This document shows, one piece after another, positions 4,700 to 46,281 of a DNA stretch of 64,000 nt (its first letter is position 1; every line of letters starts with the position of its first letter). The notes beneath the pieces were generated by a model. That model was not told where the DNA came from. It saw nothing but the letters and a program-made list of their open reading frames with translations, and did no database searches. Position numbers and translations under genes: made by a program. The stretch lies in assembly GCF_050920415.1 (NCBI RefSeq), contig NZ_CP169309.1. One strand, 5' to 3'. The stretch is from Escherichia coli (GTDB taxonomy: Bacteria; Pseudomonadota; Gammaproteobacteria; Enterobacterales; Enterobacteriaceae).

Positions 4700-6100
4700 A
4701 TGAGCGTTGTGCCTGTAGCCGACGTACTCCAGGGCCGCGTAGCCGTTGACAGCGAAGTCACCGTGCGCGGATGGGTACGTACCCGCCGAGATTCAAAAGC
4801 TGGCATCTCCTTCCTCGCCGTTTATGACGGTTCCTGCTTTGATCCTGTACAGGCTGTCATCAATAATTCTCTGCCCAATTACAATGAAGACGTTCTGCGT
4901 CTGACCACCGGTTGCTCGGTCATTGTGACGGGTAAAGTCGTGGCATCGCCAGGCCAGGGGCAACAATTTGAAATTCAGGCCAGCAAGGTTGAAGTTGCTG
5001 GTTGGGTTGAAGATCCAGACACTTACCCGATGGCGGCAAAACGCCACAGCATTGAGTATCTGCGTGAAGTCGCTCACCTGCGTCCGCGCACAAACCTGAT
5101 TGGTGCCGTCGCGCGCGTTCGCCATACGCTGGCGCAGGCGCTGCATCGCTTCTTTAACGAGCAGGGATTCTTCTGGGTTTCAACGCCACTGATTACTGCG
5201 TCTGATACCGAAGGGGCTGGCGAAATGTTCCGCGTTTCTACGCTGGATCTGGAAAACCTGCCGCGTAACGATCAGGGCAAAGTGGATTTCGACAAAGACT
5301 TCTTTGGTAAAGAGTCTTTCCTGACCGTATCTGGCCAGTTGAACGGTGAAACCTACGCTTGCGCATTGTCCAAAATTTATACCTTCGGCCCGACTTTCCG
5401 TGCTGAAAACTCCAACACCAGCCGTCACCTGGCGGAATTCTGGATGCTGGAGCCGGAAGTGGCGTTTGCTAACCTGAACGATATCGCGGGTCTGGCTGAA
5501 GCCATGCTGAAATATGTCTTCAAAGCGGTTCTCGAAGAACGCGCTGACGACATGAAATTCTTCGCTGAACGCGTAGATAAAGATGCCGTTTCACGTCTGG
5601 AACGCTTTATTGAGGCCGATTTCGCGCAGGTGGATTACACCGACGCAGTGACCATTCTCGAAAACTGCGGCAGGAAGTTTGAAAACCCGGTTTACTGGGG
5701 CGTCGATCTCTCTTCTGAGCATGAGCGTTATCTGGCAGAAGAACACTTTAAAGCACCGGTAGTGGTTAAAAACTATCCGAAAGATATTAAAGCGTTCTAT
5801 ATGCGCCTTAACGAAGACGGTAAAACCGTTGCGGCTATGGATGTTCTGGCTCCGGGCATCGGTGAAATCATTGGTGGTTCTCAGCGTGAAGAGCGTCTGG
5901 ACGTGCTGGACGAGCGTATGCTGGAAATGGGCCTGAATAAAGAAGATTACTGGTGGTATCGCGATCTGCGTCGCTACGGTACTGTTCCGCATTCCGGTTT
6001 CGGTCTTGGTTTTGAACGCCTGATTGCTTACGTAACTGGCGTGCAAAACGTGCGTGATGTGATTCCGTTCCCACGTACTCCGCGTAACGCCAGCTTCTAA
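4700..6100 (+). CDS. asnS: Asparagine--tRNA ligase (class II aminoacyl-tRNA synthetase)
   Basis: ORF track 4655..6100; start chosen at ATG 4700 ([13 protein letters not shown]) giving 466 aa; class II motifs ([21 protein letters not shown]) visible. Confidence 0.95.
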
Positions 6101-6112
6101 TTTAGCGTCTTC

Positions 6113-6142
6113 AAGAGCCAGCACCCGCTGGCTCTTTTTTTA
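6113..6142 (+). terminator. Candidate rho-independent terminator downstream of asnS
   Basis: Seen directly: inverted repeat AGAGCCAGC-ACCC-GCTGGCTCT followed by a T-run (TTTTTTTAT) just after the asnS stop codon. Confidence 0.7.
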
Positions 6143-6490
6143 TCCTTTCTGTCAAGTTATCTGTTTGTTAAGTCAAGCAATCTATTTGCAACCCCGCCAT
6201 AACGATCATCCTGTTACGGAATATTACACTGCAACATTTGCGCACAAAAACTAATCCGCATTCTTATTGCGGATTAGTTTTTTCTTAGCTGATAGCACAA
6301 TTTTCATACTATTTTTTGGCGTTCTGGATGTCTGAACGAGGATTTAGTGTCAGGTCGATAAAGTTTCTATCAGAAACAAAATTTCCTTTTAGTTAATTTA
6401 AATATAAGGAAATCATATAAATAGATAAAAATTGCTGTAAATATCATCTCGCTTCTAAGGAAATATGACGGTGTTCACAAAGTTCCTTAA

Positions 6491-6557
6491 ATTTTACTTT
6501 TAGTTACATATTTTTTCTTTTTGAAACCAAATCTTTATCTTTGTAGCACTTTCACGG
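6491..6557 (+). promoter_or_regulatory. ompF promoter-proximal OmpR-binding region (F1-F3 boxes); candidate -10 AAAGAT around 6580; long 5' UTR at approx 6592-6701
   Basis: Sequence TTTACTTTTAGTTACATATTTTTTCTTTTTGAAACCAAATCTTTATCTTTGTAGCACTTTCACGG closely matches the ompF OmpR-box region as I recall it from the literature; sits about 150-210 bp upstream of the ompF ATG inside a ~600-bp AT-rich intergenic region. Confidence 0.6.
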
Positions 6558-6701
6558 TAGCGAAACGTTAGTTTGAATGGAAAGATGCCTGCAGACACAT
6601 AAAGACACCAAACTCTCATCAATAGTTCCGTAAATTTTTATTGACAGAACTTATTGACGGCAGTGGCAGGTGTCATAAAAAAACCATGAGGGTAATAAAT
6701 A

Positions 6702-7790
6702 ATGATGAAGCGCAATATTCTGGCAGTGATCGTCCCTGCTCTGTTAGTAGCAGGTACTGCAAACGCTGCAGAAATTTATAACAAAGATGGCAACAAAGTA
6801 GATCTGTACGGTAAAGCTGTCGGTCTGCATTATTTCTCCAAGGGTAACGGTGAAAACAGTTACGGTGGCAATGGCGACATGACCTATGCCCGTCTTGGTT
6901 TTAAAGGGGAAACTCAAATCAATTCCGATCTGACCGGTTATGGTCAGTGGGAATATAACTTCCAGGGTAACAACTCTGAAGGCGCTGACGCTCAAACTGG
7001 TAACAAAACGCGTCTGGCATTCGCGGGTCTTAAATACGCTGACGTTGGTTCTTTCGATTACGGCCGTAACTACGGTGTGGTTTATGATGCACTGGGTTAC
7101 ACCGATATGCTGCCAGAATTTGGTGGTGATACTGCATACAGCGATGACTTCTTCGTTGGTCGTGTTGGCGGCGTTGCTACCTATCGTAACTCCAACTTCT
7201 TTGGTCTGGTTGATGGCCTGAACTTCGCTGTTCAGTACCTGGGTAAAAACGAGCGTGACACTGCACGCCGCTCTAACGGCGACGGTGTTGGCGGTTCTAT
7301 CAGCTACGAATACGAAGGCTTTGGTATCGTTGGTGCTTATGGCGCCGCTGACCGTACCAACCTGCAAGAAGCTCAACCTCTTGGCAACGGTAAAAAAGCT
7401 GAACAGTGGGCTACTGGTCTGAAGTATGACGCGAACAACATCTACCTGGCAGCGAACTACGGTGAAACCCGTAACGCTACGCCGATCACTAATAAATTTA
7501 CAAACATCAGCGGCTTCGCCAACAAAACGCAAGATGTTCTGTTAGTTGCGCAATACCAGTTCGATTTCGGTCTGCGTCCGTCCATCGCTTACACCAAATC
7601 TAAAGCGAAAGACGTAGAAGATATCGGTGATGTTGATCTGGTGAACTACTTTGAAGTGGGCGCAACCTACTACTTCAACAAAAACATGTCCACCTATGTT
7701 GACTACATCATCAACCAGATCGATTCTGACAACAAACTGGGCGTAGGTTCAGACGACACCGTTGCTGTGGGTATCGTTTACCAGTTCTAA
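6702..7790 (+). CDS. ompF: Outer membrane porin F
   Basis: 362-aa ORF; signal peptide [22 protein letters not shown]; C-terminal Phe (VYQF) typical of beta-barrel porins; recognised as OmpF. Confidence 0.96.
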
Positions 7791-9165: not shown

Positions 9166-9180
9166 GCGTTAAAAACAATG

Positions 9181-9207
9181 AAGCCCGCTGAAAAGCGGGC
9201 TTTTTTA
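9181..9207. terminator. Candidate bidirectional terminator between convergent aspC and gloC
   Basis: Seen directly: hairpin AAGCCCGCT-GAAA-AGCGGGCTT flanked by an A-rich run upstream and a T-run downstream. Confidence 0.7.
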
Positions 9208-9214
9208 TGCGCCT

Positions 9215-9862
9215 TTACCAGACGGGCATTTCGTCTTGCAGGAAGGGATTATGCAGGCGCTCATAACCAAGTGTGGATAATGGTCCGTGACCCGGAATAA
9301 ATGTCACATCATCCCCCAGTGGCAGCAATTTATCTTTGATTGAAGAAATCAGTTGATTATGATCGCCACGCGGGAAGTCACTGCGCCCTACTCCACCTTT
9401 GAAAATAACGTCGCCAGAAATCAGCAGCCTTGCCCGCTCATCAAAAAACACGACATGACCCGGCGTATGCCCAGGGCAATGTAACACCTGTAAAGTCACA
9501 TTCCCTATGCTGATGGTATCGCCTTCGTTCAGCCAACGATCTGGCGTCAGCGGCTGGCACTCTTCCAGACCAAACATACGACTTTGCGCAGGCAAGCCTT
9601 GCAGCCAGAACTCATCTTCTTTTTCCGGGCCAAAAACCGGCACGCCGTAATGTTGCACCAGTTCCGCCGCTGCGCCAACGTGGTCCAGATGACCATGAGT
9701 CAGCAGGATCTGCATCAGTGTCAGGCCGCTGGCATCAACTTCCTGTTTGATTTTTTCCGCATCGCCGCCAGGATCGACCAGTGCGGCCAGACGGGTTTGT
9801 TCACACCAGATCAATGAACAGTTCTGGGAGAATGCGGTGACCGGAATAATACGATAGTTCAT
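9215..9862 (-). CDS. gloC: Metallo-beta-lactamase fold hydrolase, glyoxalase II family (hydroxyacylglutathione hydrolase GloC/YcbL)
   Basis: 215-aa ORF; THGHLDHVG (HxHxDH) metal-binding motif visible. Confidence 0.88.
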
Positions 9863-9888
9863 ACTGCCCCTGTTTCGTTAAGCGATTA

Positions 9889-10437
9889 CTACCAGTGCCG
9901 TGCTGGCCCGGTATCAATATGCACAAAGTTACTACGTGGGTAATATCCTACACCACCTGCGCGCATAGATAACGCGGCTTTGCGAATATTGCTTAACGCG
10001 ATACCTTCAATGTGGAAATCCATCGCCTGGCCTTTAGTGTGATAGCTTTTCTTCGCTACTCCACGGCTGCGGGCGCGTAGTTCATTGTTGGTATCAATGG
10101 AACGATAACCGGAAATGAGTTGCACCGGTTTGCGGGTGCCTAACAACCCTTGCAGGCGATACAACTGGTCGAATAATCCTGGGTCGATGGACTTTATTTT
10201 GTTCGCGCGGTAATCGCGGAAAAAATGGTTAAGTTTTGCCAATTCTTCCTGAATATAGCCTCTGCCATCGAAAAACTCCGCTTTGATTGACTCTCCGGTA
10301 TGAAGATTATTGAGTGTCAAAATGCGCGGGCGTGGGGTCGAGAGTGTTGCAAACGCCGGGGTCGGCAGGATGGCGGCACCGAGTGCAACGCCACCAAGCG
10401 CCAGCAGTTTGCGGCGATTAGCGTCGAATTTGTCCAT
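9889..10437 (-). CDS. mepK: Periplasmic murein endopeptidase MepK (YcbK), Tat-exported, peptidase M15-like
   Basis: ORF track 9889..10446 begins at a TTG; start chosen at the ATG at 10437 (MDKFDANRRKLLALGG), giving 182 aa with a twin-arginine signal. Confidence 0.85.
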   Translation of the reverse strand: MDKFDANRRKLLALGGVALGAAILPTPAFATLSTPRPRILTLNNLHTGESIKAEFFDGRGYIQEELAKLNHFFRDYRANKIKSIDPGLFDQLYRLQGLLGTRKPVQLISGYRSIDTNNELRARSRGVAKKSYHTKGQAMDFHIEGIALSNIRKAALSMRAGGVGYYPRSNFVHIDTGPARHW

Positions 10438-10617
10438 GATAATCAAGTCTACAGGTCAATGTTATCGTTTATATGCACTTCTGGCGCACAAGAGGCACCT
10501 TAACCGCCCGTAAAGCAGACGTCAAGATGACTCAACCCCAGCAGTGACGGGGGCTGCAGAGAAGCGCCCCCGATCATGCTAATTATTACGACAACTGATT
10601 TCCCCGAACTGCTTCAT

Positions 10618-12465
10618 TTACCTGATTAATTGTTCCGCTTTCGATACGATTTGCGAGCTGGATCGCGCAGGCAGATCATAATTGTAAATATCTGTACGAT
10701 ACTGGGTACGACCATCTGCACCAACAAAGGCCGTCAGATAGAAGAGATTCACCGGAATCGACTGCCGAATATTGACGTAACGCGTATCGCCCTGCTTCAG
10801 CGCATCAGAAATACGTTTGTCATTCCAGCCTGCATCCTGCAACAGCATATTCGCCAGATCGGAAGCTTTATTCACTCGTACACAGCCTGAGCTCAATGCG
10901 CGTGTATCACGCTTGAACAGATTGTGGTTCGGCGTGTCATGCAAATAAATGGCCTCTGAACTCGGCATATTGAATTTATAGCGCCCCAGCGAGTTCCGTG
11001 GGCCTGGAGCCTGCTGGAAGCGGAACGGTAAATTCGAGGCCGTGATTGTAGACCAGTCAACCTGCCACGGATCAATCGCCTCCCTGCTGTTCCAACCGCG
11101 CATCACCGTATAGCCATGGCTTTCGAGATATCCCGGATCGTTGCGCACTTTCGGCAGAATATCTTTGCGTGCCAGAGTTGGTGGTACATTCCACGGCGGG
11201 TTTACCACCACGTTGTTAAGGGCACTGCTCATCATTGGCGTTTTGCGATCGGGGCGACCGACAATGACTCGCGAATCCAGCACCTGATTGCCGTTCTGAT
11301 AGTAGACCAGCGAATAGGCCGGAATGTTAACCATGATCCCGGTAGAAAGCTCTGTTGGCAGCAAGCGCAATCGCTGGATGTTGAGTGCCAACACGCCAGC
11401 ACGCTGGGCGGGCGTTACGTTTAACCAGTCACGCGTTGCCGGGCCAATAGCACCATCTGCCCCCAATCCTTGCCATGCCTGAAAACGTTTAACGGCTTCC
11501 ACCAGTTCATTATCGTAGGCGGCACGAACGACAGGCGCAGGTTTACTACGAGACGTAGTTTGCTTGTCCATCGGCTTAGTTTCTGCTGTTTCAACAGTAA
11601 CAGCGGATGGGCTGACTACCGCGTCAGTTGGCGTGTCATCGCCAGGTAGCGTAATTTTCGGCCCCCCGTCCAGCATGCCTGTACGCTGCAATATTTCGCG
11701 CAACGCCGGTACGTCGTTACTCCACTGCCCTGGGCGCAACGTTGCTTTGCCGGTCAGTTGGGGCCACGGTTTGGTGTCACTGAGTAAGGCCAGTAAAGAT
11801 TCATGCATCGCCGCATATTGCGGATGCTGCGGTGCCAGTCCTGCAACAAACGTCGGCAATTGACCTTTATCCAGCGCCAGCTGCCATTGGTTAATCACCG
11901 AGAGCGGCGGCGTGGAAAGCGCATAAGGTTTACTGCTGTATAACCAGCGAGTGCCTTTGACTGGAATATTTGCGATGAAATGGAGATAGCCCATCATCGC
12001 ATCAGAGAGCACCACATCGCGTGCCATCCCGTTAATACCAGGATCGGTCAGCAACTCTACCCATTTATTAAACTGCGGCTGGAAACCGGCAATCGCCACT
12101 TCTGCCAGCTGTTGCTGGAAGGCTTTAACAGCATCACGGTTTTCCCACATGGGTTGCATATCGCGTGCGGCATACAACAGTTGAAGCTGGTTAAGATAAA
12201 CCGGCTTATAGCCTGCAGGTAATTGAGATTCGATTTGCGTGCGGGCTTTTTCTGCCGCACCTTCAGGCAATGGCTGGATCCCCGCCATTATTGCCGTGGC
12301 CTGCGCCTGCGGCAGTGCCTCGCCCTGTTCGCTGACAGCCACCGGGCTGTCGCCAGGGATTACTTCAGGCTCATCGGCCTGAGCATTGAACAGTGGAGCG
12401 AATGTTACGGCCACGCACAAACTGATTGCCGACAGCCGACGACCACACATCATATTAAGCAACAT
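10618..12465 (-). CDS. ldtD: L,D-transpeptidase LdtD (YcbB)
   Basis: 615-aa ORF; YkuD-type catalytic region [23 protein letters not shown] with the active-site Cys visible; N-terminal signal sequence. Confidence 0.9.
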
Positions 12466-34768: not shown

Positions 34769-35857
34769 TTAGCCGTGACGGCGTTCGAACTCAATCATGA
34801 AGTCTGTCAGCGCTTTAACGCCTTCCAGAGGCATTGCGTTATAAATTGACGCACGCATACCGCCGACCACACGATGCCCTTTCAGGGCATGCAGCCCCGC
34901 AGCAAAAGACTCTTCAAGGAACAATTTGTCAAGCGCACTGTCCGCCAACTGGAACGGCACGTTCATCCGCGAACGGTTAGCTTTCGCCACGTCATTGCGG
35001 TAGAAATCGCTGTTATCAATCACCCCATACAGCAGTTCTGCTTTTTGCTGATTGATTTTATCCATTGCAGCCACGCCGCCGTTCGCTTTCAGCCATTTGA
35101 ATACCAGACCGGACAGGTACCAGGCAAATGTCGGCGGCGTGTTAAACATTGAGTCGTTATCGTTAAGGATGGAATAATCCAGAATCGACGGACAAGCGAT
35201 ATTCGCTTTACCCAGTAAGTCTTCACGAACGATGACGATTGTCAGGCCCGCCGGGCCGATATTTTTCTGTGCGCCAGCATAAATCACACCGTAACGACTG
35301 ACGTCAATTGGACGGGAAAGAATCGTTGAAGAGAAGTCGGCTGCAACCACCACTTCTTTACCAAAGTCTGGCGTTTCGTCGATGGCGATACCATCGATGG
35401 TCTCATTTGGGCAGTAATGCATATAAGCGGCATTATCAGAGAGCTGCCATTCACGCATTGGCTTAACCGCACGAAGACCATCAACAGTCACTTTGGCGTC
35501 AAAGACATTTGGCTTGCAGTATTTTTTCGCTTCTTTAATGGCACTTGCCGCCCAGTAACCGGCATCAACATAATCTGCAGTGGTTTTATCACCAAGAATA
35601 TTCAGCGGAACAGCAGCAAACTGACCGCGACCACCGCCGTGGCAGAACAATACTTTATAGTTGGAGGGGATATTAAGAAGATCGCGAAAATCCTTCTCGG
35701 CTTCCTCTGCAACCTGAATGAACTCTTTACCACGGTGGCTCACTTCCATCACCGACGTACCAAGACCGTTCCAGTCGCGCAGTTCCTGTTGAGCCTGTTT
35801 AAGCACCTCTGCCGGTAGCATTGCCGGACCAGAACTAAAATTGAAGATTTGAGCCAT
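34769..35857 (-). CDS. serC: Phosphoserine aminotransferase
   Basis: 362-aa ORF, N-terminus [15 protein letters not shown]; upstream of aroA in the serC-aroA operon arrangement. Confidence 0.96.
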
Positions 35858-36055
35858 TTCCCCTCACCACGTTGCGTTGCCATTAACCCACGGACAATCG
35901 ATTGCGACCGCGGGTAATACATTATTCCTGTGGCTATCGGTTTTATCATTCAGTGGCGCGCATCGCAATGGGTAAAACAGTCGAGGGCAAAAATGCGGCA
36001 CGCGTCACACAATAGAATCTCTCGGATTATTGTCCAAAAACCGATTTTTTTGCTG

Positions 36056-36748
36056 TCAGGTCACCCGTTTAGCCCGACTTGCCTTCGTCCATTCTGGATT
36101 TGCACAGCGCGGACATAATTGTTTTTCCCCTGCGTTCATATGAATGATCTCACTGCAACGGATGCAAGCATAGTCCGCCGACTCAGGCACCACTTTGTAA
36201 CGCTGAGTACAGTCACTGGGTAAAATAAGTAATCCCGGTTTGACCTTGTCATCTTCAAAGAAATAGACACTGATTTGCCCGTTGGTTTCGAGAATCGCCA
36301 GACGTACCTGCCCCAACTGCTCCACTCCACGCAGTCGCAGCTCCATAAAGAACTCAAATTCCGTCATGTTGGAGTTATTAAGTTTCGACCAGGCCAGCTC
36401 ACCATCCTCAATAATGACAACCGGCTTGCCTTCCAGAAGATCCTCCAGTTTTTCACTGTGCGCCATCAACCACATTACCAGACGGTATAACAACGCCAGA
36501 GTAATAAAGACGATAAGCACCGGAACCATCGGCACATCATCATAAAACGCCACATCCCCCGCCGCTGACCCCAGCGTCAGAATGATTAACACTTCAAAAA
36601 GCGACATCTGCCGCACACCGCGTCTTCCGGTCATTTTGAGGAACAAAAAAACCAGTACAAAGGTATAAAGACTACGTAGTGCAACTTCGCCAAGGAAATC
36701 AAAAGGCACTTTATCAAGTGCCATACGGTGGAGATCGAACGCCTTCAT
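36056..36748 (-). CDS. ycaP: DUF421 (YetF-like) family membrane protein YcaP
   Basis: 230-aa ORF with N-terminal TM segments; position between serC and ycaO. Confidence 0.85.
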   Translation of the reverse strand: MKAFDLHRMALDKVPFDFLGEVALRSLYTFVLVFLFLKMTGRRGVRQMSLFEVLIILTLGSAAGDVAFYDDVPMVPVLIVFITLALLYRLVMWLMAHSEKLEDLLEGKPVVIIEDGELAWSKLNNSNMTEFEFFMELRLRGVEQLGQVRLAILETNGQISVYFFEDDKVKPGLLILPSDCTQRYKVVPESADYACIRCSEIIHMNAGEKQLCPRCANPEWTKASRAKRVT

Positions 36749-36877
36749 TTTTATGCTCTTATCGTGGTTTATCCACTAAAAGCATAGTCAACAGTTCATC
36801 GGCATGGCGGCGGTGATAGCGCCTTTGAGATAAAACCCGTATTATTGCGCGCTTTCCGTACGACTAAAGTGATTTTC

Positions 36878-38638
36878 ATGACGCAAACATTTATCCCCGG
36901 CAAAGATGCCGCTCTGGAAGATTCCATCGCTCGCTTCCAGCAAAAACTTTCAGACCTCGGTTTTCAGATTGAAGAGGCCTCCTGGCTGAATCCCGTGCCT
37001 AACGTCTGGTCTGTACATATTCGCGACAAAGAGTGCGCACTGTGTTTTACCAACGGTAAAGGCGCAACCAAAAAAGCGGCGCTGGCTTCTGCACTCGGTG
37101 AATATTTCGAGCGTCTGTCTACCAACTACTTTTTTGCTGACTTCTGGCTGGGCGAAACCATCGCCAACGGTCCATTCGTGCATTATCCCAACGAAAAATG
37201 GTTCCCACTGACCGAAAACGACGATGTACCAGAAGGGCTGCTCGATGACCGTCTGCGCGCATTTTACGATCCGGAGAATGAACTGACCGGCAGCATGCTG
37301 ATTGACCTACAATCTGGTAACGAAGATCGTGGTATTTGCGGTCTGCCGTTTACGCGCCAGTCCGACAATCAGATCGTTTATATTCCGATGAATATCATTG
37401 GTAACCTGTACGTTTCTAACGGTATGTCCGCTGGCAATACCCGAAACGAAGCACGCGTCCAGGGGTTGTCCGAAGTTTTCGAACGCTACGTGAAAAACCG
37501 GATTATTGCTGAAAGCATCAGCCTGCCAGAGATCCCGGCAGACGTGCTGGCGCGTTATCCAGCGGTGGTTGAAGCGATCGAAACACTGGAAGCGGAAGGT
37601 TTCCCGATCTTCGCTTATGATGCCTCGCTTGGCGGTCAATATCCGGTGATCTGCGTGGTACTGTTCAATCCAGCTAACGGTACCTGCTTTGCATCCTTCG
37701 GTGCACATCCTGATTTTGGCGTTGCACTGGAACGTACCGTGACCGAGTTGCTGCAAGGCCGCGGTCTGAAAGATTTGGATGTGTTTACTCCGCCAACCTT
37801 CGATGATGAAGAAGTCGCTGAACATACTAACCTCGAAACGCACTTTATCGATTCCAGCGGTTTAATCTCCTGGGACCTATTCAAGCAGGATGCTGATTAT
37901 CCGTTTGTGGACTGGAGCTTCTCAGGCACCACGGAAGAAGAGTTTGCTACGCTGATGGCTATCTTCAACAAAGAAGATAAAGAAGTTTATATTGCCGATT
38001 ACGAGCATCTGGGCGTTTATGCTTGCCGCATTATCGTGCCTGGCATGTCCGATATTTATCCGGCAGAAGATCTGTGGCTGGCGAATAACAGCATGGGCAG
38101 CCATTTACGTGAAACGATTCTTTCACTCCCAGGCAGCGAGTGGGAAAAAGAAGATTACCTGAACCTCATCGAGCAACTGGATGAAGAAGGTTTTGATGAC
38201 TTTACTCGCGTGCGTGAGCTGTTGGGTCTGGCGACCGGGTCGGATAACGGTTGGTACACCCTGCGTATCGGAGAATTAAAAGCCATGCTGGCGCTGGCTG
38301 GTGGCGATCTGGAACAGGCTCTGGTCTGGACCGAATGGACGATGGAGTTTAACTCATCAGTATTTAATCCGGAACGCGCCAACTATTATCGCTGTCTGCA
38401 AACGTTGTTATTACTGGCACAGGAAGAAGACCGCCAACCACTGCAATATCTGAATGCCTTCGTTCGTATGTATGGCGCAGATGCCGTAGAAGCCGCCAGT
38501 GCGGCAATGAGCGGTGAATCGGCGTTTTATGGCTTGCAACCCGTAGATAGCGATCTGCACGCGTTTGCTGCACATCAGTCGTTGTTGAAGGCCTACGAAA
38601 AGCTGCAGCGCGCCAAAGCAGCATTCTGGGCAAAATAA
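36878..38638 (+). CDS. ycaO: YcaO-domain protein (ATP-dependent; implicated with RimO in ribosomal protein S12 methylthiolation)
   Basis: ORF track 36845..38638; start chosen at the ATG at 36878 (MTQTFIPGKDAALEDS), giving 586 aa; function from literature recall. Confidence 0.9.
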   Translation: MTQTFIPGKDAALEDSIARFQQKLSDLGFQIEEASWLNPVPNVWSVHIRDKECALCFTNGKGATKKAALASALGEYFERLSTNYFFADFWLGETIANGPFVHYPNEKWFPLTENDDVPEGLLDDRLRAFYDPENELTGSMLIDLQSGNEDRGICGLPFTRQSDNQIVYIPMNIIGNLYVSNGMSAGNTRNEARVQGLSEVFERYVKNRIIAESISLPEIPADVLARYPAVVEAIETLEAEGFPIFAYDASLGGQYPVICVVLFNPANGTCFASFGAHPDFGVALERTVTELLQGRGLKDLDVFTPPTFDDEEVAEHTNLETHFIDSSGLISWDLFKQDADYPFVDWSFSGTTEEEFATLMAIFNKEDKEVYIADYEHLGVYACRIIVPGMSDIYPAEDLWLANNSMGSHLRETILSLPGSEWEKEDYLNLIEQLDEEGFDDFTRVRELLGLATGSDNGWYTLRIGELKAMLALAGGDLEQALVWTEWTMEFNSSVFNPERANYYRCLQTLLLLAQEEDRQPLQYLNAFVRMYGADAVEAASAAMSGESAFYGLQPVDSDLHAFAAHQSLLKAYEKLQRAKAAFWAK

Positions 38639-38969
38639 AATCAAATAGCCTACGCAATGTAGGCTTAATGATTCGTCTGAGTTATATTACGGGGCGTTTT
38701 TTTAATGCCCCGCTTTACATATATTTGCATTAATAAAATAATTGTAATTATAAAGTTAAATATCGGTAATTTGTATTTAATAAATACGATCGATATTGTT
38801 ACTTTATTCGCCTGGTGCTCCCTTTTAATTAACTGTTTTAGCGGAGGATGCGGAAAAAATTCAACTCATTTGTTAATTTTTAAAATTTATTTTTATTTGG
38901 ATAATCAAATATTTACTCCGTATTTGCATAAAAACCATGCGAGTTACGGGCCTATAAGCCAGGCGAGAT

Positions 38970-38998
38970 ATGATCTATATCAATTTCTCATCTATAAT
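38970..38998 (+). promoter_or_regulatory. Candidate FNR half-site palindrome (ATGATctatATCAA) with adjacent TATAAT -10 hexamer in the focA-pflB upstream promoter region
   Basis: Seen directly: near-consensus TTGAT-N4-ATCAA at 38970-38983 and TATAAT at 38993-38998 in a ~400-bp AT-rich region upstream of focA; the pfl operon is known to be FNR-activated from multiple promoters. The spacing to the -10 is not classical, so the exact assignment is uncertain. Confidence 0.4.
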
Positions 38999-39043
38999 GC
39001 TTTGTTAGTATCTCGTCGCCGACTTAATAAAGAGAGAGTTAGT

Positions 39044-39901
39044 GTGAAAGCTGACAACCCTTTTGATCTTTTACTTCCTGCAGCAATGGCCAAAGTGGCC
39101 GAAGAGGCAGGTGTCTATAAAGCAACGAAACATCCGCTTAAGACTTTCTATCTGGCGATTACCGCCGGTGTTTTCATCTCAATCGCATTCGTCTTCTATA
39201 TCACAGCAACCACTGGCACAGGAACAATGCCCTTCGGCATGGCAAAACTGGTTGGCGGCATTTGCTTCTCTCTGGGGCTGATTCTTTGTGTTGTCTGCGG
39301 AGCCGATCTCTTTACTTCCACAGTGTTGATTGTTGTTGCTAAGGCGAGTGGGCGCATCACCTGGGGTCAGTTGGCGAAAAACTGGCTAAATGTCTATTTT
39401 GGCAACCTGGTCGGCGCACTGCTGTTTGTACTTTTAATGTGGCTTTCCGGCGAGTATATGACCGCGAATGGTCAATGGGGACTAAACGTCCTACAAACCG
39501 CCGACCACAAAGTGCACCATACTTTTATTGAGGCCGTCTGTCTTGGTATCCTGGCAAACCTGATGGTATGTCTGGCAGTATGGATGAGTTATTCTGGCCG
39601 CAGCCTGATGGATAAAGCGTTCATTATGGTGCTGCCGGTCGCGATGTTTGTTGCCAGCGGTTTTGAGCACAGTATCGCAAACATGTTTATGATCCCGATG
39701 GGTATTGTAATCCGCGACTTCGCATCTCCGGAATTCTGGACCGCTGTCGGTTCTGCACCGGAAAATTTTTCTCACCTGACCGTGATGAACTTCATCACTG
39801 ATAACCTGATTCCGGTTACGATCGGTAATATTATCGGCGGTGGTTTGTTGGTTGGGTTGACATACTGGGTCATTTACCTGCGTGAAAACGATCACCATTA
39901 A
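39044..39901 (+). CDS. focA: Formate channel FocA (formate-nitrite transporter family)
   Basis: ORF track 38705..39901 extends far upstream; start chosen at GTG 39044 (VKADNPFDLLLPAAMAK), giving 285 aa; FNT-family polytopic membrane protein. Confidence 0.88.
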   Translation: MKADNPFDLLLPAAMAKVAEEAGVYKATKHPLKTFYLAITAGVFISIAFVFYITATTGTGTMPFGMAKLVGGICFSLGLILCVVCGADLFTSTVLIVVAKASGRITWGQLAKNWLNVYFGNLVGALLFVLLMWLSGEYMTANGQWGLNVLQTADHKVHHTFIEAVCLGILANLMVCLAVWMSYSGRSLMDKAFIMVLPVAMFVASGFEHSIANMFMIPMGIVIRDFASPEFWTAVGSAPENFSHLTVMNFITDNLIPVTIGNIIGGGLLVGLTYWVIYLRENDHH

Positions 39902-39955
39902 TGGTTGTCGAAGTACGCAGTAAATAAAAAATCCACTTAAGAAGGTAGGTGTTAC

Positions 39956-42238
39956 ATGTCCGAGCTTAATGAAAAGTTAGCCACAGCCTGGGAAGGTTTT
40001 ACCAAAGGTGACTGGCAGAATGAAGTAAACGTCCGTGACTTCATTCAGAAAAACTACACTCCGTACGAGGGTGACGAGTCCTTCCTGGCTGGCGCTACTG
40101 AAGCGACCACCACCCTGTGGGACAAAGTAATGGAAGGCGTTAAACTGGAAAACCGCACTCACGCGCCAGTTGACTTTGACACCGCTGTTGCTTCCACCAT
40201 CACCTCTCACGACGCTGGCTACATCAACAAAGCGTTGGAAAAAGTTGTTGGTCTGCAGACTGAAGCTCCGCTGAAACGTGCTCTTATCCCGTTCGGTGGT
40301 ATCAAAATGATCGAAGGTTCCTGCAAAGCGTACAACCGCGAACTGGACCCGATGATCAAAAAAATCTTCACTGAATACCGTAAAACTCACAACCAGGGCG
40401 TGTTCGACGTTTACACTCCGGACATCCTGCGTTGCCGTAAATCCGGTGTTCTGACCGGTCTGCCAGATGCTTATGGCCGTGGTCGTATCATCGGTGACTA
40501 CCGTCGCGTTGCGCTGTACGGTATCGACTACCTGATGAAAGACAAATACGCTCAGTTCACCTCTCTGCAGGCTGATCTGGAAAACGGCGTAAACCTGGAA
40601 CAGACTATCCGTCTGCGCGAAGAAATCGCTGAACAGCACCGCGCTCTGGGTCAGATGAAAGAAATGGCTGCGAAATACGGCTACGACATCTCTGGTCCGG
40701 CTACCAACGCTCAGGAAGCTATCCAGTGGACTTACTTCGGCTACCTGGCTGCTGTTAAGTCTCAGAACGGTGCTGCAATGTCCTTCGGTCGTACCTCCAC
40801 CTTCCTGGATGTGTACATCGAACGTGACCTGAAAGCTGGCAAGATCACCGAACAAGAAGCGCAGGAAATGGTTGACCACCTGGTCATGAAACTGCGTATG
40901 GTTCGCTTCCTGCGTACTCCGGAATACGATGAACTGTTCTCTGGCGACCCGATCTGGGCAACCGAATCTATCGGTGGTATGGGCCTCGACGGTCGTACCC
41001 TGGTTACCAAAAACAGCTTCCGTTTCCTGAACACCCTGTACACCATGGGTCCGTCTCCGGAACCGAACATGACCATTCTGTGGTCTGAAAAACTGCCGCT
41101 GAACTTCAAGAAATTCGCTGCTAAAGTGTCCATCGACACCTCTTCTCTGCAGTATGAGAACGATGACCTGATGCGTCCGGACTTCAACAACGATGACTAC
41201 GCTATCGCTTGCTGCGTAAGCCCGATGATCGTTGGTAAACAAATGCAGTTCTTCGGTGCGCGTGCAAACCTGGCGAAAACCATGCTGTACGCAATCAACG
41301 GCGGCGTTGACGAAAAACTGAAAATGCAGGTTGGTCCGAAATCTGAACCGATCAAAGGCGACGTCCTGAACTACGATGAAGTGATGGAGCGCATGGATCA
41401 CTTCATGGACTGGCTGGCTAAACAGTACATCACTGCACTGAACATCATCCACTACATGCACGACAAGTACAGCTACGAAGCCTCTCTAATGGCGCTGCAC
41501 GACCGTGACGTTATCCGCACCATGGCATGTGGTATTGCTGGTCTGTCCGTTGCTGCTGACTCCCTGTCTGCAATCAAATATGCGAAAGTTAAACCGATTC
41601 GTGACGAAGACGGTCTGGCTATCGACTTCGAAATCGAAGGCGAATACCCGCAGTTTGGTAACAACGACCCGCGTGTAGATGACCTGGCGGTTGACCTGGT
41701 AGAACGTTTCATGAAGAAAATTCAGAAACTGCACACCTACCGTGACGCAATCCCGACTCAGTCTGTTCTGACCATCACTTCTAACGTTGTGTATGGTAAG
41801 AAAACTGGTAACACCCCAGACGGTCGTCGTGCTGGCGCGCCGTTCGGACCGGGTGCTAACCCGATGCACGGTCGTGACCAGAAAGGTGCTGTAGCATCTC
41901 TGACTTCCGTTGCTAAACTGCCGTTTGCTTACGCTAAAGATGGTATCTCCTACACCTTCTCTATCGTTCCGAACGCACTGGGTAAAGACGACGAAGTTCG
42001 TAAGACCAACCTGGCTGGTCTGATGGATGGTTACTTCCACCACGAAGCATCCATCGAAGGTGGTCAGCACCTGAACGTTAACGTGATGAACCGTGAAATG
42101 CTGCTCGACGCGATGGAAAACCCGGAAAAATATCCGCAGCTGACCATCCGTGTATCTGGCTACGCAGTACGTTTCAACTCGCTGACTAAAGAACAGCAGC
42201 AGGACGTTATTACTCGTACCTTCACTCAATCTATGTAA
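39956..42238 (+). CDS. pflB: Pyruvate formate-lyase (glycyl radical enzyme)
   Basis: 760-aa ORF; C-terminal glycyl-radical motif RVSGYAVRF; N-terminus [15 protein letters not shown]. Confidence 0.97.
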
Positions 42239-43251: not shown

Positions 43252-43842
43252 TTATAGTGCATCTACCATATCCCGTACCTGAGATAATAACGACTGATAA
43301 TAGCTCGCGTGAAGTTCTTCCCCATCGAATACCACTGTATTACACAAGAAAGTGACATCGGCATCTTCAATACCAAGATAACTGCACATATTTATCAAAT
43401 AATCGCTTATATTTTTTTCCCAGCCTATCTGGACAAATGATTCTTTGTCTCCTCCAACCAGCGCCACCCAACGAACTTTATTGAATGGTAATTTGTGCCC
43501 ATCTCCATAAGCCAGCCCATTATTCCATACTCTGTCAATATATCCTTTTAGCATTGCTGGGAAGCTGTACCACCAGAGAGGAAAAACCACCACTAACGTG
43601 TCATGTTCAAGCAGCTCTGAATAAAGCTGATGAACCTCTGGAGAATAACGTTTATCCATATTCTTCCAGTCTGGTTCATCTTCCGGCGTCATCACCGGGT
43701 TGAAATTACGCCGATATAAATCGAGTTCCGTCACCTGTATTTTCCGCTCCATTGCCCGCTGATGGATCGCATCAGCAATATGTGCGGTCAATGAATCATG
43801 ACGAGGATGGGCCCATACCAAATAAATACGTTCAGACTGCAT
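43252..43842 (-). CDS. ycaK: Flavodoxin-like-fold NAD(P)H oxidoreductase family protein YcaK
   Basis: 196-aa ORF; N-terminal pattern IYLVWAHPRHDSLT resembles NAD(P)H:quinone oxidoreductase / KefF-MdaB-like proteins (inference). Confidence 0.8.
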   Translation of the reverse strand: MQSERIYLVWAHPRHDSLTAHIADAIHQRAMERKIQVTELDLYRRNFNPVMTPEDEPDWKNMDKRYSPEVHQLYSELLEHDTLVVVFPLWWYSFPAMLKGYIDRVWNNGLAYGDGHKLPFNKVRWVALVGGDKESFVQIGWEKNISDYLINMCSYLGIEDADVTFLCNTVVFDGEELHASYYQSLLSQVRDMVDAL

Positions 43843-43941
43843 AATTTTACCTCCACGTTAAGTTCTGGAGCGCACTTTACGCAGGCGGCATCATCCTGTA
43901 AACGTGATGATTCAGGATGAGTTAATGAAGGATTTTCACTA

Positions 43942-44850
43942 ATGCGGATGAATATGTCTGACTTTGCCACTTTCTTTGCCGTGGCCCGTAATCAAAGCTT
44001 TCGTGCAGCAGGCGATGAGTTAGGCTTATCTTCGTCCGCCATTAGCCATAGTATTAAAACACTGGAACAACGTCTTAAAATTCGCTTATTCAATCGGACA
44101 ACCCGAAGCGTATCGTTAACGGAAGCGGGTTCTAATCTCTATGAACGATTGCGCCCAGCTTTCGACGAAATTCAGATCATGTTAGATGAGATGAATGATT
44201 TTCGTCTGACACCGACAGGTACGCTCAAAATCAATGCCGCCCGGGTAGCTGCACGTATATTTTTAATACCTTTACTGGTTGGTTTCACACGTGAATATCC
44301 TGATATTAAAGTCGAGCTCACAACTGACGACTCTCTTGTTGATATCGTCCAGCAGGGCTTTGACGCTGGCGTTCGACTTAGTGGCATCGTCGAAAAAGAT
44401 ATGATCAGCGTGGCGATCGGCCCGCCAGTGAAATTATGTGTAGCAGCAACGCCAGAGTACTTTGCAAGATATGGCAAACCCCGCCATCCTCATGATCTGC
44501 TTAATCATCAATGTGTTGTTTTTCGTTATCCCAGCGGCAAACCTTTCCACTGGCAATTTGCAAAGGAGCTGGAAATTGCTGTCGCAGGAAATATCATTCT
44601 GGATGATGTTGATGCTGAACTGGATGCCGTTTTGATGGGTGCTGGTATCGGGTATCTGCTCTATGAACAGATCAAGGAGTACCTTGATACCGGTCGTTTA
44701 GAATGTGTACTGGAAGACTGGATCACAGAGCGTCCAGGCTTCCAGATCTATTACCCAAACCGCCAGTATATGTCCTGCGGCTTGCGCGCATTTCTCGATT
44801 ATGTAAAAACGGGTCAGATCTGCCAGAGTCAGCGTCACCGACCACAATAA
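43942..44850 (+). CDS. ycaN: LysR-type transcriptional regulator YcaN
   Basis: 302-aa ORF; N-terminal HTH typical of LTTRs (FRAAGDELGLSSSAISHSIKTLEQRLKIRLFNRTTR); divergent from ycaK. Confidence 0.88.
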   Translation: MRMNMSDFATFFAVARNQSFRAAGDELGLSSSAISHSIKTLEQRLKIRLFNRTTRSVSLTEAGSNLYERLRPAFDEIQIMLDEMNDFRLTPTGTLKINAARVAARIFLIPLLVGFTREYPDIKVELTTDDSLVDIVQQGFDAGVRLSGIVEKDMISVAIGPPVKLCVAATPEYFARYGKPRHPHDLLNHQCVVFRYPSGKPFHWQFAKELEIAVAGNIILDDVDAELDAVLMGAGIGYLLYEQIKEYLDTGRLECVLEDWITERPGFQIYYPNRQYMSCGLRAFLDYVKTGQICQSQRHRPQ

Positions 44851-46281
44851 TTATTTGCTATTCGCTTTACGCGCCAGCAGCGGGAATATCAGCCCTAATC
44901 CCACCAGCACAAACGGCGTTGCAACATTCAGCGCCAACTGGAATGTCCACTCTGCGGTGAAGGCTTCCATTTTCGGGAAAATACCCGTCAGGCAGGCAAA
45001 AGCGGTAAAGGCAAAACACCAAATTCCGACGGTCATTGCCAGCGGCTTATTACGAATAAAGACATATTCCGGCTTATATTTCTGCGCCAGGCGAACAACT
45101 GCAATAAATGCAACAAATACCCATAAATAACGCAGCGGCATCACTACCGAGTTAAGGTTCAACAGCCATTTATAGAGATTGTTCATATCACCGATGCCGA
45201 GAGTCGGCAGCATAATCAGGATCGCCACCAGCACCAGGGTCAGAAAATAGCCATTAACGGGCGTACCAGATGCGTTGGTACGACATAAACTGGCAGGAAT
45301 ATATTTGCTGTCAGCATCGCCTAATAATACTTTAAGCGGCGCATCAATCGAGAATACCAGCGCAGCTACTTGACCCAGAGTATTCGCAATGGCGTAAATC
45401 ACCATTAAAGTATTACCCATGCTGTAATACTCGCCCAGCTTCTGGAAGGCGTAATACTGGCCGTTGGTCATTAAGTCATCGGGAATATTGCGGGAGTCAA
45501 ACATCATCCCCATTGCAAGCGATCCAAGGATCGCGCACACCGCAACCATCACCGCCAGGCATAACATCCCTTTTGGAAATTCTTTTCCTGGGTTGCGCGT
45601 TTGATTAACGTAGGGAGAAATCTTCTCTGCTCCACCAACCGCAAAGACCAGCATTGAAATAGTGGTAATGTAGGTAAAGTCGATATGAGGAATAAACGTT
45701 TCCCAGGTAATGTTTGTGGTCGCAATATGCACTTCAGTAATCGCAGGCGCGGTTACCGCCATCGCCACATACAGGAGCGACATAACAAACATCGCAATCC
45801 CTGCCACAGAACCGACGATTTTCAGCGATTTCATACCGCGTGAAGCAACCCACATAAAGAAGACAAACAGCACCAGCGTTAACCCCTGTAACGCTACGAC
45901 GGAATATTCTTTGATTAGCGAACCGTCGCCTTTCATCGCCCAACCGAGCGCAATCAGTATTGCCTGGGGTTTTTGTGCCAGATAGGGAATATGCACTACC
46001 CAGTAGGTCCACGCGGCGAGGTAAGCCAGTCCGGGTCCCATCGTGTGTTTAATCCAGGTACTGACCCCGCCCTTCCCATCTTTGAAGGTCGAGCCTAACT
46101 GACCAACAATTAGCGCATAAGGTGTGAAATAGAGCGCAAAGATAAACACCCATGAAAAAACAACCACCAGCCCCTGGTTGGCGTAGTTATTAACAACGTT
46201 GCCAAAACCCCAGACAGTGATAAAAGACATCAGCGCAATGTTGTACCATCGCAGCTGTTTTTCCTGAACATTCCCAGCCAT
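44851..46281 (-). CDS. ycaM: APC-superfamily putative amino acid / polyamine transporter YcaM
   Basis: ORF track 44851..46473; start chosen at the ATG at 46281 (MAGNVQEKQLRWYNIALMSF), giving 476 aa; about 12 TM segments. Confidence 0.82.
   Translation of the reverse strand: MAGNVQEKQLRWYNIALMSFITVWGFGNVVNNYANQGLVVVFSWVFIFALYFTPYALIVGQLGSTFKDGKGGVSTWIKHTMGPGLAYLAAWTYWVVHIPYLAQKPQAILIALGWAMKGDGSLIKEYSVVALQGLTLVLFVFFMWVASRGMKSLKIVGSVAGIAMFVMSLLYVAMAVTAPAITEVHIATTNITWETFIPHIDFTYITTISMLVFAVGGAEKISPYVNQTRNPGKEFPKGMLCLAVMVAVCAILGSLAMGMMFDSRNIPDDLMTNGQYYAFQKLGEYYSMGNTLMVIYAIANTLGQVAALVFSIDAPLKVLLGDADSKYIPASLCRTNASGTPVNGYFLTLVLVAILIMLPTLGIGDMNNLYKWLLNLNSVVMPLRYLWVFVAFIAVVRLAQKYKPEYVFIRNKPLAMTVGIWCFAFTAFACLTGIFPKMEAFTAEWTFQLALNVATPFVLVGLGLIFPLLARKANSK

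Follow-up and report, generated by a model that had tools for sequence, protein, structure and literature searches.

The stretch of DNA analysed here (the window) is 64,000 nucleotides of the Escherichia coli chromosome, and the present work concerns its ycaO gene together with the divergent ycaP gene on one side and the focA-pflB genes on the other. Gene calls were based on the listing of open reading frames (ORFs) with their translations and on the RefSeq annotation of the identical record NZ_CP169399.1, to which positions 35500-39500 show 100% identity by megablast. In the same search this segment was matched in one piece by 5425 of 5426 complete E. coli genomes, and the RefSeq gene order in NZ_CP169399.1 is serC(-), ycaP(-), ycaO(+), focA(+), pflB(+), pflA(+). 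What lies here is the ordinary serC-aroA / ycaP / ycaO / focA-pflB-pflA arrangement of the E. coli chromosome, with the following genes and spacers:

36056-36748, minus strand: ycaP coding sequence, 230 aa (ORF listing and annotation)
36749-36877: ycaP/ycaO divergent spacer, 129 bp (ORF listing)
36878-38638, plus strand: ycaO coding sequence, 586 aa plus stop, ATG start (ORF listing and annotation)
38639-39043: ycaO-focA spacer, 405 bp, between the ycaO stop and the focA GTG
39044-39901, plus strand: focA coding sequence (formate channel), GTG start (annotation)
39956-42238, plus strand: pflB coding sequence (pyruvate formate-lyase; ORF listing and annotation)

The identities and coordinates of ycaP and ycaO proposed earlier by a model that saw only the letters (the sequence-only reading) are exact to the base in both the ORF listing and the RefSeq annotation, and the divergence of the two genes across 129 bp was borne out. 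The ORFs are not fortuitous, since YcaO has Pfam and PDB matches and YcaP a Pfam match. Taken together, the data described below very probably reflect three independent transcription units lying side by side, ycaP, ycaO and focA-pflB, which would be neighbours by chance. The locus, its synteny, the lack of a precursor peptide and the substrate of the enzyme are already known (PMC7550191, PMC13063428), and our additions are minor ones: the correction of a functional label, and regulatory and architectural details.

YcaO matches the Pfam family PF02624 over the whole profile (positions 1-325, E 1.4e-75), carries at residues 407-581 the C-terminal helical domain, similar to tetratricopeptide repeats (TPR-like), of PF18381 YcaO_C (E 5e-65), and scores 915.7 bits against the NCBIfam equivalog NF040716 'YcaO_for_S12', for which the cut-off is 700. 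Over all 586 residues it aligns with PDB 4Q84, 581 of them being identical and five substituted (T166I, G249A, N347S, S497N, A548S). The E. coli K-12 protein (UniProt P75838; PDB 4Q84/4Q85/4Q86) has the same locus, flanking genes, spacer lengths and two Pfam domains, and the five substitutions that separate it from the YcaO of the window are conservative, none of them falling in an invariant column of the YcaO alignment. For comparison, an alignment of 20 diverse YcaO sequences served to fetch 80 loci, one per species and with 7-kb flanks. In this alignment no sequence departs from E199 or E202, conservation of E75 and of E78 is at least 90%, and YcaO here carries the motif EVFERYVK, E202 included. 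Its computed isoelectric point (pI) is 4.38, compared with a reported value of 4.4 for the K-12 protein, and the 80 YcaO homologues from other genomes range from 4.33 to 4.89; being acidic, these homologues therefore belong to the group predicted to modify the ribosomal protein uL16 (PMC13063428).

The substrate of the enzyme is taken from the literature. Watson et al. in 2020 had already put forward YcaO as the candidate enzyme (PMC7550191), and Rice et al. (Biochemistry 2026) have shown genetically and in vitro that the E. coli enzyme (EcYcaO) thioamidates uL16 at Met82 (PMC13063428). In that work, when 4,403 E. coli proteins were screened with AlphaFold3 against EcYcaO, the only confident partners were uL16, uL29 and YcaO itself, and only uL16 placed a loop, the one with Met82, in the active site; the Met82 thioamide was missing from the ribosomes of a ycaO deletion strain; and a fusion of EcYcaO to maltose-binding protein, given Na2S, MgCl2 plus ATP, thioamidated full-length uL16 and left peptides of 11 or 21 residues unmodified (PMC13063428). 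The dissociation constant of EcYcaO and uL16 is 9.8 nM, the Klebsiella pneumoniae and Pseudomonas aeruginosa enzymes thioamidate their own uL16, and the acidic YcaO group was defined as uL16-modifying, EcYcaO having no RRE, the domain that recognises precursor peptides (PMC13063428). By transfer of this activity on sequence identity, YcaO in the window is the predicted uL16 Met82 thioamide synthase; rplP lies outside the window. According to the general YcaO mechanism (PMC13063428), a sulfide equivalent would attack the backbone amide carbonyl, ATP would phosphorylate the intermediate and phosphate would then be eliminated. The very acidic YcaO (pI 4.4) would recognise the folded, very basic uL16 and not a linear peptide, so that no precursor gene, RRE or nearby partner would be needed.

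The sequence-only reading had assigned YcaO to the modification of S12 together with RimO, and had asked whether other substrates exist. As to the family name the assignment holds, since NF040716 is matched; as to function it is outdated, uL16 Met82 having been shown as the direct substrate (PMC13063428). The question of additional substrates is largely answered by the same study, in which the proteome-wide AlphaFold3 screen gave no other catalytically posed substrate. That the main role of YcaO would be that of an accessory factor for the beta-methylthiolation of S12 Asp88 by RimO is unlikely in our judgement. This explanation has behind it the 915.7-bit match to 'YcaO_for_S12' and a RefSeq product name to the same effect, the copurification of YcaO with tagged S12, and a decrease of S12 modification when ycaO was deleted, from 99% to 84% (Strader et al. 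2011, both as summarised in PMC13063428). Against it, RimO needs no helper to modify an S12 peptide in vitro, and the modification disappears when rimO is deleted; the AlphaFold3 interface scores (ipTM) are 0.31 for YcaO-uS12 and 0.16 for YcaO-RimO; and a direct substrate, uL16, is now demonstrated (PMC13063428). Furthermore, it is not evident what an ATP-dependent amide activation would contribute to a radical-SAM methylthiolation. The S12/RimO role of YcaO, described as unclear in PMC13063428, and hence the family name NF040716, is doubtful, and the practical value of our analysis lies in this correction: the RefSeq name 'S12 methylthiotransferase accessory factor' is out of date, and should be read as uL16 Met82 thioamide synthase.

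Comparison with related systems is in agreement with a stand-alone enzyme. As the sequence-only reading had stated, ycaO is a stand-alone gene. Its neighbours are serC, ycaP, focA and pflB, and no E1-like, dehydrogenase, precursor, RRE or TfuA gene adjoins it. The azoline cyclodehydratases of the SagD/McbD type, which act in thiazole/oxazole-modified microcin (TOMM) systems, share with YcaO the ATP-binding fold and the mechanism of amide O-phosphorylation, but these systems comprise an E1-like/RRE partner, a dehydrogenase and a precursor gene, none of which is found at the ycaO locus. In the comparison with cyclodehydratase-type loci that had been suggested, YcaO scores 46.6 bits against the TOMM/SagD model TIGR03604, far under the cut-off of 219, with no partner genes. 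The score against the model for thioamidation of the McrA glycine in methanogens (TIGR03266) is also below cut-off, at 39.9 bits for 365. The methanogen enzyme (PDB 6PE3 MJ1094) shares the catalytic domain with E. coli YcaO (E 5e-4), and the chemistry is common to both, the backbone of a folded protein being thioamidated close to an active site at the expense of ATP; it differs in being usually paired with TfuA, in being without the C-terminal TPR-like domain and in taking short peptides, and the TfuA and ThiS-like partners of methanogen YcaO are absent in E. coli.

To describe the transcription of the locus, both spacers were folded, scanned for sites and aligned among 14 Enterobacteriaceae, which gave the following elements:

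36835-36875, plus strand: predicted conserved ycaO promoter / 5' untranslated region block (spacer alignment)
38647-38665, plus strand: first hairpin after the ycaO stop, AGCCTAC-GCAAT-GTAGGCT (RNA fold)
38690-38712, plus strand: second hairpin, 9-bp GC-rich stem, CGGGGCGTT-TTTTT-AATGCCCCG (RNA fold and alignment)
38714-38742, plus strand: predicted upstream focA-pflB promoter, TTTACA-17-AATAAT (10/12 consensus matches)
38825-38834, minus strand: ArcA-box-like site AGTTAATTAA (0 mismatches to WGTTAATTAW)
38970-38983, plus strand: FNR-like site ATGATCTATATCAA (1 mismatch to TTGATNNNNATCAA)
38993-38998, plus strand: predicted -10 TATAAT of the focA-proximal promoter (published P6), just downstream of the FNR-like site

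A generic scan for promoters and terminators returned counts equal to the shuffled expectation and was used only alongside conservation and literature. Upstream of ycaO, the blocks AAAACCCGTATNATTGCGCGCTTTCCGTACGA / AAAACCCGTATTATTGCGCGCTTTCCGTACGA are near-invariant in the 14 Enterobacteriaceae, and CGTATNAT with a GC-rich stretch after it recurs throughout Enterobacterales irrespective of which gene lies upstream, while the ycaP-proximal half of the 129-bp spacer is poorly conserved. The block holds a -10-like TATTAT (36840-36845) followed by a GC-rich discriminator, TGCGCGC; in Aeromonas and Pasteurellaceae it is altered, with TATTAT and a GC-rich discriminator retained, and a -10-like TATNAT with such a discriminator is its persistent core. 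No convincing -35 hexamer was found for this promoter, a conserved GATAGC being roughly placed but poor relative to TTGACA. From this conservation we infer that the block is ycaO's own promoter and where transcription would start, and the GC-rich discriminator suggests a growth-rate or stringent control of ycaO, as is typical of translation genes.

On the other side of ycaO, the fold of 38630-38730 has a z-score of -5.28. The first hairpin is kept only in Escherichia and Citrobacter, and in the scan it came out as a terminator-like element of the minus strand. The second hairpin keeps a constant position in the 14 Enterobacteriaceae, with stems that vary and stay complementary (GGGGCG/CGCCC, GGGGCC/GGCCC, GGAGCG/CGCTCC), and is followed in other species by a T run. 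Because its stems vary in sequence without losing complementarity, its position is fixed and a T run follows, this hairpin is likely a real intrinsic terminator of ycaO. In the E. coli of the window part of the T run falls inside the loop, and the upstream focA promoter has its -35 (38714) beginning 2 bp past the stem.

Within the 405-bp spacer, the TTTACA-17-AATAAT promoter lies about 1.2 kb upstream of pflB; Shimada et al. list a constitutive sigma-70 promoter with the same hexamers between focA and ycaO (PMC3946193), and the element probably corresponds to the published P7 promoter. ArcA-like boxes span 38754-38880, the TTTTAATTAAC block around the ArcA-like site is conserved, and the region of the FNR-like site and TATAAT (38970-38998) is almost invariant in the 14 Enterobacteriaceae. 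The position of ycaO directly upstream of the focA-pflB promoters, as proposed in the sequence-only reading, is in agreement with the finding of the FNR-like site, the TATAAT and TTTACA-17-AATAAT in this one spacer. The multi-promoter focA-pflB region described by Sawers, controlled by FNR, ArcA and IHF, has the same FNR-like site, TATAAT, upstream promoter and ArcA-like boxes, which in the window are predicted sites. In the ycaP-ycaO spacer, no FNR-like site (up to 2 mismatches) or ArcA-like site (up to 1 mismatch) was found, and a scan with the CRP consensus gave matches at 3 mismatches; of the two spacers scanned, the FNR- and ArcA-like sites are confined to that of focA. A scan of 35500-40000 against Rfam at E up to 1 gave no RNA family. 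Insertion sequences (IS) are reported to enter the focA/ycaO spacer repeatedly, as an adaptive change, when E. coli colonises the mouse gut (PMC4674774); unlike in those adapted strains, the spacer is intact here at 405 bp.

Whether ycaO is co-regulated with the anaerobic genes had been left unclear by the sequence-only reading, and the sequence argues against it: ycaO has its own promoter block and terminator and no FNR/ArcA-like site upstream, and the literature is in the same direction (PMC7550191). Independent transcription is proposed because of the conserved ycaO promoter block, the terminator with its varying yet complementary stems and the restriction of FNR/ArcA-like sites to the focA spacer. 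In the mechanism that we favour, ycaO would be expressed from its own promoter up to its own hairpin terminator, putatively under growth-rate or stringent control, focA-pflB would be served by a separate promoter cluster within the 405-bp spacer, controlled by FNR and ArcA, and ycaP, encoding an apparently unrelated membrane protein of the YetF/DUF421 type with a zinc ribbon, would have been inserted between serC and ycaO.

To evaluate the meaning of the neighbourhood of ycaO and focA-pflB, the 80 loci were screened by tblastn with AroA, SerC, YcaP, FocA and PflB of the window. The focA-pflB genes lie directly downstream of ycaO and co-directional with it in 42 of the 44 Enterobacterales loci with enough downstream sequence, the only sampled exceptions being two Rosenbergiella (L023 and L050; Erwiniaceae), where aroA-serC-ycaO is kept and no focA-pflB is found within 7 kb downstream. 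In Aeromonas focA-pflB is downstream of ycaO at five loci out of five, the upstream gene being asd and not serC, and in both Vibrionaceae (Enterovibrio and Grimontia) pflB follows ycaO after a DUF3360 gene that replaces focA. The linkage is found at none of the 11 Pasteurellaceae loci, nor at the loci of Gilliamella, Shewanella, Pseudoalteromonas, Methylophaga and Bacteriovoracaceae. The protein at the focA position in Enterovibrio nigricans (L068, positions 9179-10723) has 514 aa and matches DUF3360 (PF11840, E 2.6e-284), with the same arrangement in Grimontia hollisae (L069); it may serve the pfl system as an alternative transporter, of formate or of something else.

The colocalisation of gammaproteobacterial ycaO with focA-pfl has already been published by Watson et al. 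(2020), who, citing Sawers 2005, concluded that focA-pfl is transcribed independently of ycaO and that the functions are probably unrelated (PMC7550191). A functional linkage, in which the expression or activity of ycaO would be tied to anaerobiosis or formate metabolism, is nonetheless suggested by the persistence of the gene order in Enterobacterales, in Aeromonas with its asd flank and, for pflB, in Vibrionaceae. RoxA is an O2-dependent oxygenase. The uL16 thioamide could for example be balanced against the O2-dependent hydroxylation of Arg81 by RoxA; in the literature, cells deleted for roxA grow more slowly in poor medium and recover when ycaO is deleted as well, so that the hydroxylation and the thioamide interact epistatically. 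Since the hydroxylation of Arg81 needs O2 and a thioamide without the hydroxyl appears costly, the output of ycaO might be tuned by the neighbouring promoter region, which is strongly induced under anaerobiosis, and the linkage would then reflect a coupling of oxygen or formate status to the modification of uL16 beside the peptidyl-transferase centre, a proposal that we hold to be quite improbable. Alternatively within this proposal, the sulfur donor might depend on anaerobic metabolism or, in a weaker variant, the Cys4 domain of YcaP could contribute to sulfur delivery in Enterobacteriaceae. Several observations make a functional linkage in general improbable: (i) ycaO has its own conserved promoter and terminator, with no FNR- or ArcA-like site upstream; (ii) the gene order is absent in Pasteurellaceae, the other groups named above and Rosenbergiella; (iii) the thioamide is present in aerobically grown cells, and the functions were judged unrelated (PMC7550191); and (iv) the inheritance of gene order within related orders suffices as an explanation.

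Concerning ycaP, the encoded protein matches PF04239 (DUF421, the YetF C-terminal domain) with E 5.9e-17 and 61.8 bits for a gathering threshold of 23.6, the match spanning only positions 2-76 of the 129 of the profile; YetF_N (PF20730) reaches 23.3 bits for a cut-off of 26.5, and many homologues carry a precomputed PF20730 match. Four cysteines within the last ~40 residues, C195, C198, C212 and C215, are shared without exception by 13 homologues, the most distant at 56% identity, and define the following element:

36104-36166, minus strand: CxxC-13-CxxC tail of YcaP, residues 195-215 (homologue alignment)

The AlphaFold2 model, of moderate confidence (pLDDT 68.7, pTM 0.45), has helices at 15-39, 46-66 and 73-96, a single small alpha/beta domain and, as its best-predicted part, a C-terminus in the form of a beta-ribbon. 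Foldseek with this model returned YetF first, then zinc ribbons of the rubredoxin, RpoP and MCM types for the tail; the model being moderately confident, these fold matches support domain identity only. YcaP is thus modelled as a predicted inner-membrane protein of the YetF/DUF421 type, with three transmembrane helices, one globular subdomain and a Cys4 zinc ribbon. Its only solved relative is Bacillus subtilis YetF (PDB 3C6F), which aligns with the subdomain at residues 102-165, a second stretch being insignificant. B. subtilis YetF and the spore inner-membrane proteins YdfS / 2Duf (PMC10126465) have an N-terminal transmembrane region, as predicted for YcaP, followed by a YetF-type subdomain like that of YcaP; in contrast, the YetF crystal structure has two globular subdomains per monomer whereas YcaP has one, plus the invariant Cys4 ribbon, and the host of YcaP is a non-sporulating Gram-negative. 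In the literature searched, no description was found of a DUF421 variant with a single subdomain and a zinc-ribbon tail, and none of the literature on ycaP was a functional study. The gene is a YciT target in chromatin immunoprecipitation with exonuclease digestion (ChIP-exo), is induced at the growth transition in O157:H7, ycaO not being in the same table, and also appears as a linked marker. As to its role, we infer by analogy that YcaP may modulate the stability of the membrane or of membrane proteins under stress, which fits the growth-transition induction in O157:H7 and the YciT listing.

The distribution of ycaP is patchy. It is present in 20 of the 79 non-self loci, namely in core Enterobacteriaceae and in Serratia silvae, Hafnia and Rahnella, and in 18 Enterobacteriaceae loci it is divergent from and adjacent to ycaO across 127-139 bp. 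By tblastn no ycaP was found in Citrobacter youngae, in Mangrovibacter or in two further close relatives (L010, L014), where ycaO is retained, in Pantoea, Erwinia and other Erwiniaceae, Pectobacterium/Pectobacteriaceae, Yersinia, Photorhabdus, Edwardsiella and Budvicia, or beside ycaO at any sampled locus outside Enterobacterales. In Hafnia and Serratia silvae ycaP lies about 1.3 kb from ycaO, the gap in Hafnia holding an asparaginase-like ORF. An ORF whose N-terminus is of the asparaginase type lies divergently upstream of ycaO in Hafnia (L031, positions 5810-6883), where it separates the two genes, and in Yersinia (L034, positions 5815-6852), where a Pfam asparaginase match confirmed it. By this distribution ycaP would be a lineage-restricted insertion between serC and ycaO and not a conserved partner, and because of its patchiness in the 80-genome synteny it is no obligatory partner of YcaO.

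That ycaP is nevertheless a functional partner of ycaO, through a Cys4 sulfur relay, a membrane tether or co-regulating divergent promoters, appears very improbable. The divergent adjacency at 18 loci, the invariance of the four cysteines and the sulfur donor that EcYcaO would need (PMC13063428) could be invoked in its favour. However, ycaP is missing from most genomes with an acidic orthologous YcaO and from the side of ycaO at all loci sampled outside Enterobacterales, and Citrobacter youngae, Mangrovibacter, L010 and L014 have lost it but kept ycaO; with E. coli as the expression host, the YcaO of P. aeruginosa thioamidates its uL16, and the confident partners in the AlphaFold3 screen were only uL16, uL29 and YcaO (PMC13063428). 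In the same homologue search, 987 relatives of YcaP were found for at least 8000 of YcaO. Moreover, the CxxC...CxxC motif with its ribbon strands resembles structural zinc sites (rubredoxin, RpoP-type), and the low conservation of the ycaP-proximal half of the spacer is also unfavourable.

A search for hidden peptide genes was performed in both spacers, extended by 30 bp on each side, for ORFs of at least 10 codons with ATG, GTG or TTG starts. It gave 11 small ORFs of 10-35 aa, 4 at the 129-bp spacer and 7 at the 405-bp spacer, none of which has a Shine-Dalgarno motif at a usable distance or is rich in Cys, Ser and Thr (summed fraction up to 0.29 over the 11, and up to 0.21 at the 129-bp spacer). 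In the alignment of 14 Enterobacteriaceae, they fall either where conservation is poor and indels are frequent, or on top of the terminator or of the focA promoter, which is conserved. An 11-codon ORF at 38848 was rejected, its GGAGG abutting the ATG without spacing and the ATG being absent in other species. The absence of convincing small ORFs, already noted by the sequence-only reading, is thus upheld by this search, and there is no hidden peptide gene or new system at the locus. That YcaO would act on an unannotated precursor of a peptide made on the ribosome and modified after translation (RiPP) encoded in a spacer has a close to negligible probability, for although most characterised YcaO enzymes act on peptides encoded alongside (PMC13063428) and 11 ORFs can be drawn, these lack a usable Shine-Dalgarno and a Cys/Ser/Thr-rich composition and lie in segments variable by substitutions and indels, the SagD/TOMM score is far under its cut-off, and EcYcaO leaves short peptides unmodified and has no RRE (PMC13063428).

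The reading that we prefer, with three independent units and a YcaO that acts on uL16, has points that weigh against it: (i) the uL16 activity is carried over from K-12/BW25113 on 99% identity; (ii) the transcription start of ycaO and the interpretation of its discriminator come from conservation only; (iii) EcYcaO would need a sulfur donor in vivo and E. coli has no TfuA (PMC13063428), and therefore an accessory factor would exist somewhere, which makes a nearby gene functionally possible; (iv) the function of YcaP is proposed by analogy only, on a model of moderate confidence (pLDDT 68.7); and (v) the linkage with focA-pflB persists in Aeromonas despite the changed other flank, which a neighbourhood by chance explains poorly.

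Two longer ORFs of the listing were rejected as mechanical extensions: a 597-aa version of ycaO that opens with the TTG of 36845, 36878 being where both the annotation and the crystallised protein begin, and a 398-aa ORF with an ATG start (38705-39901), which prolongs focA upstream across its AT-rich promoter region (31% GC), the annotated start being the GTG at 39044. Over 35500-39500, an identity of at least 99% was found in just 4 of the 5426 complete E. coli genomes and one of 95-99% in 5420, the best match being strain MFDS1022581, a Korean food isolate; because so few complete genomes reach 99%, the window comes from a sparsely sequenced lineage. Downstream of pflA, an NAD(P)H oxidoreductase gene, which we take to be the ycaK of K-12, is split by IS2, with approximate positions from the RefSeq annotation of the identical record:

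~43252-43632: oxidoreductase 3' fragment
~43643-44870: frameshifted IS2 transposase
~44962-45177: oxidoreductase 5' fragment

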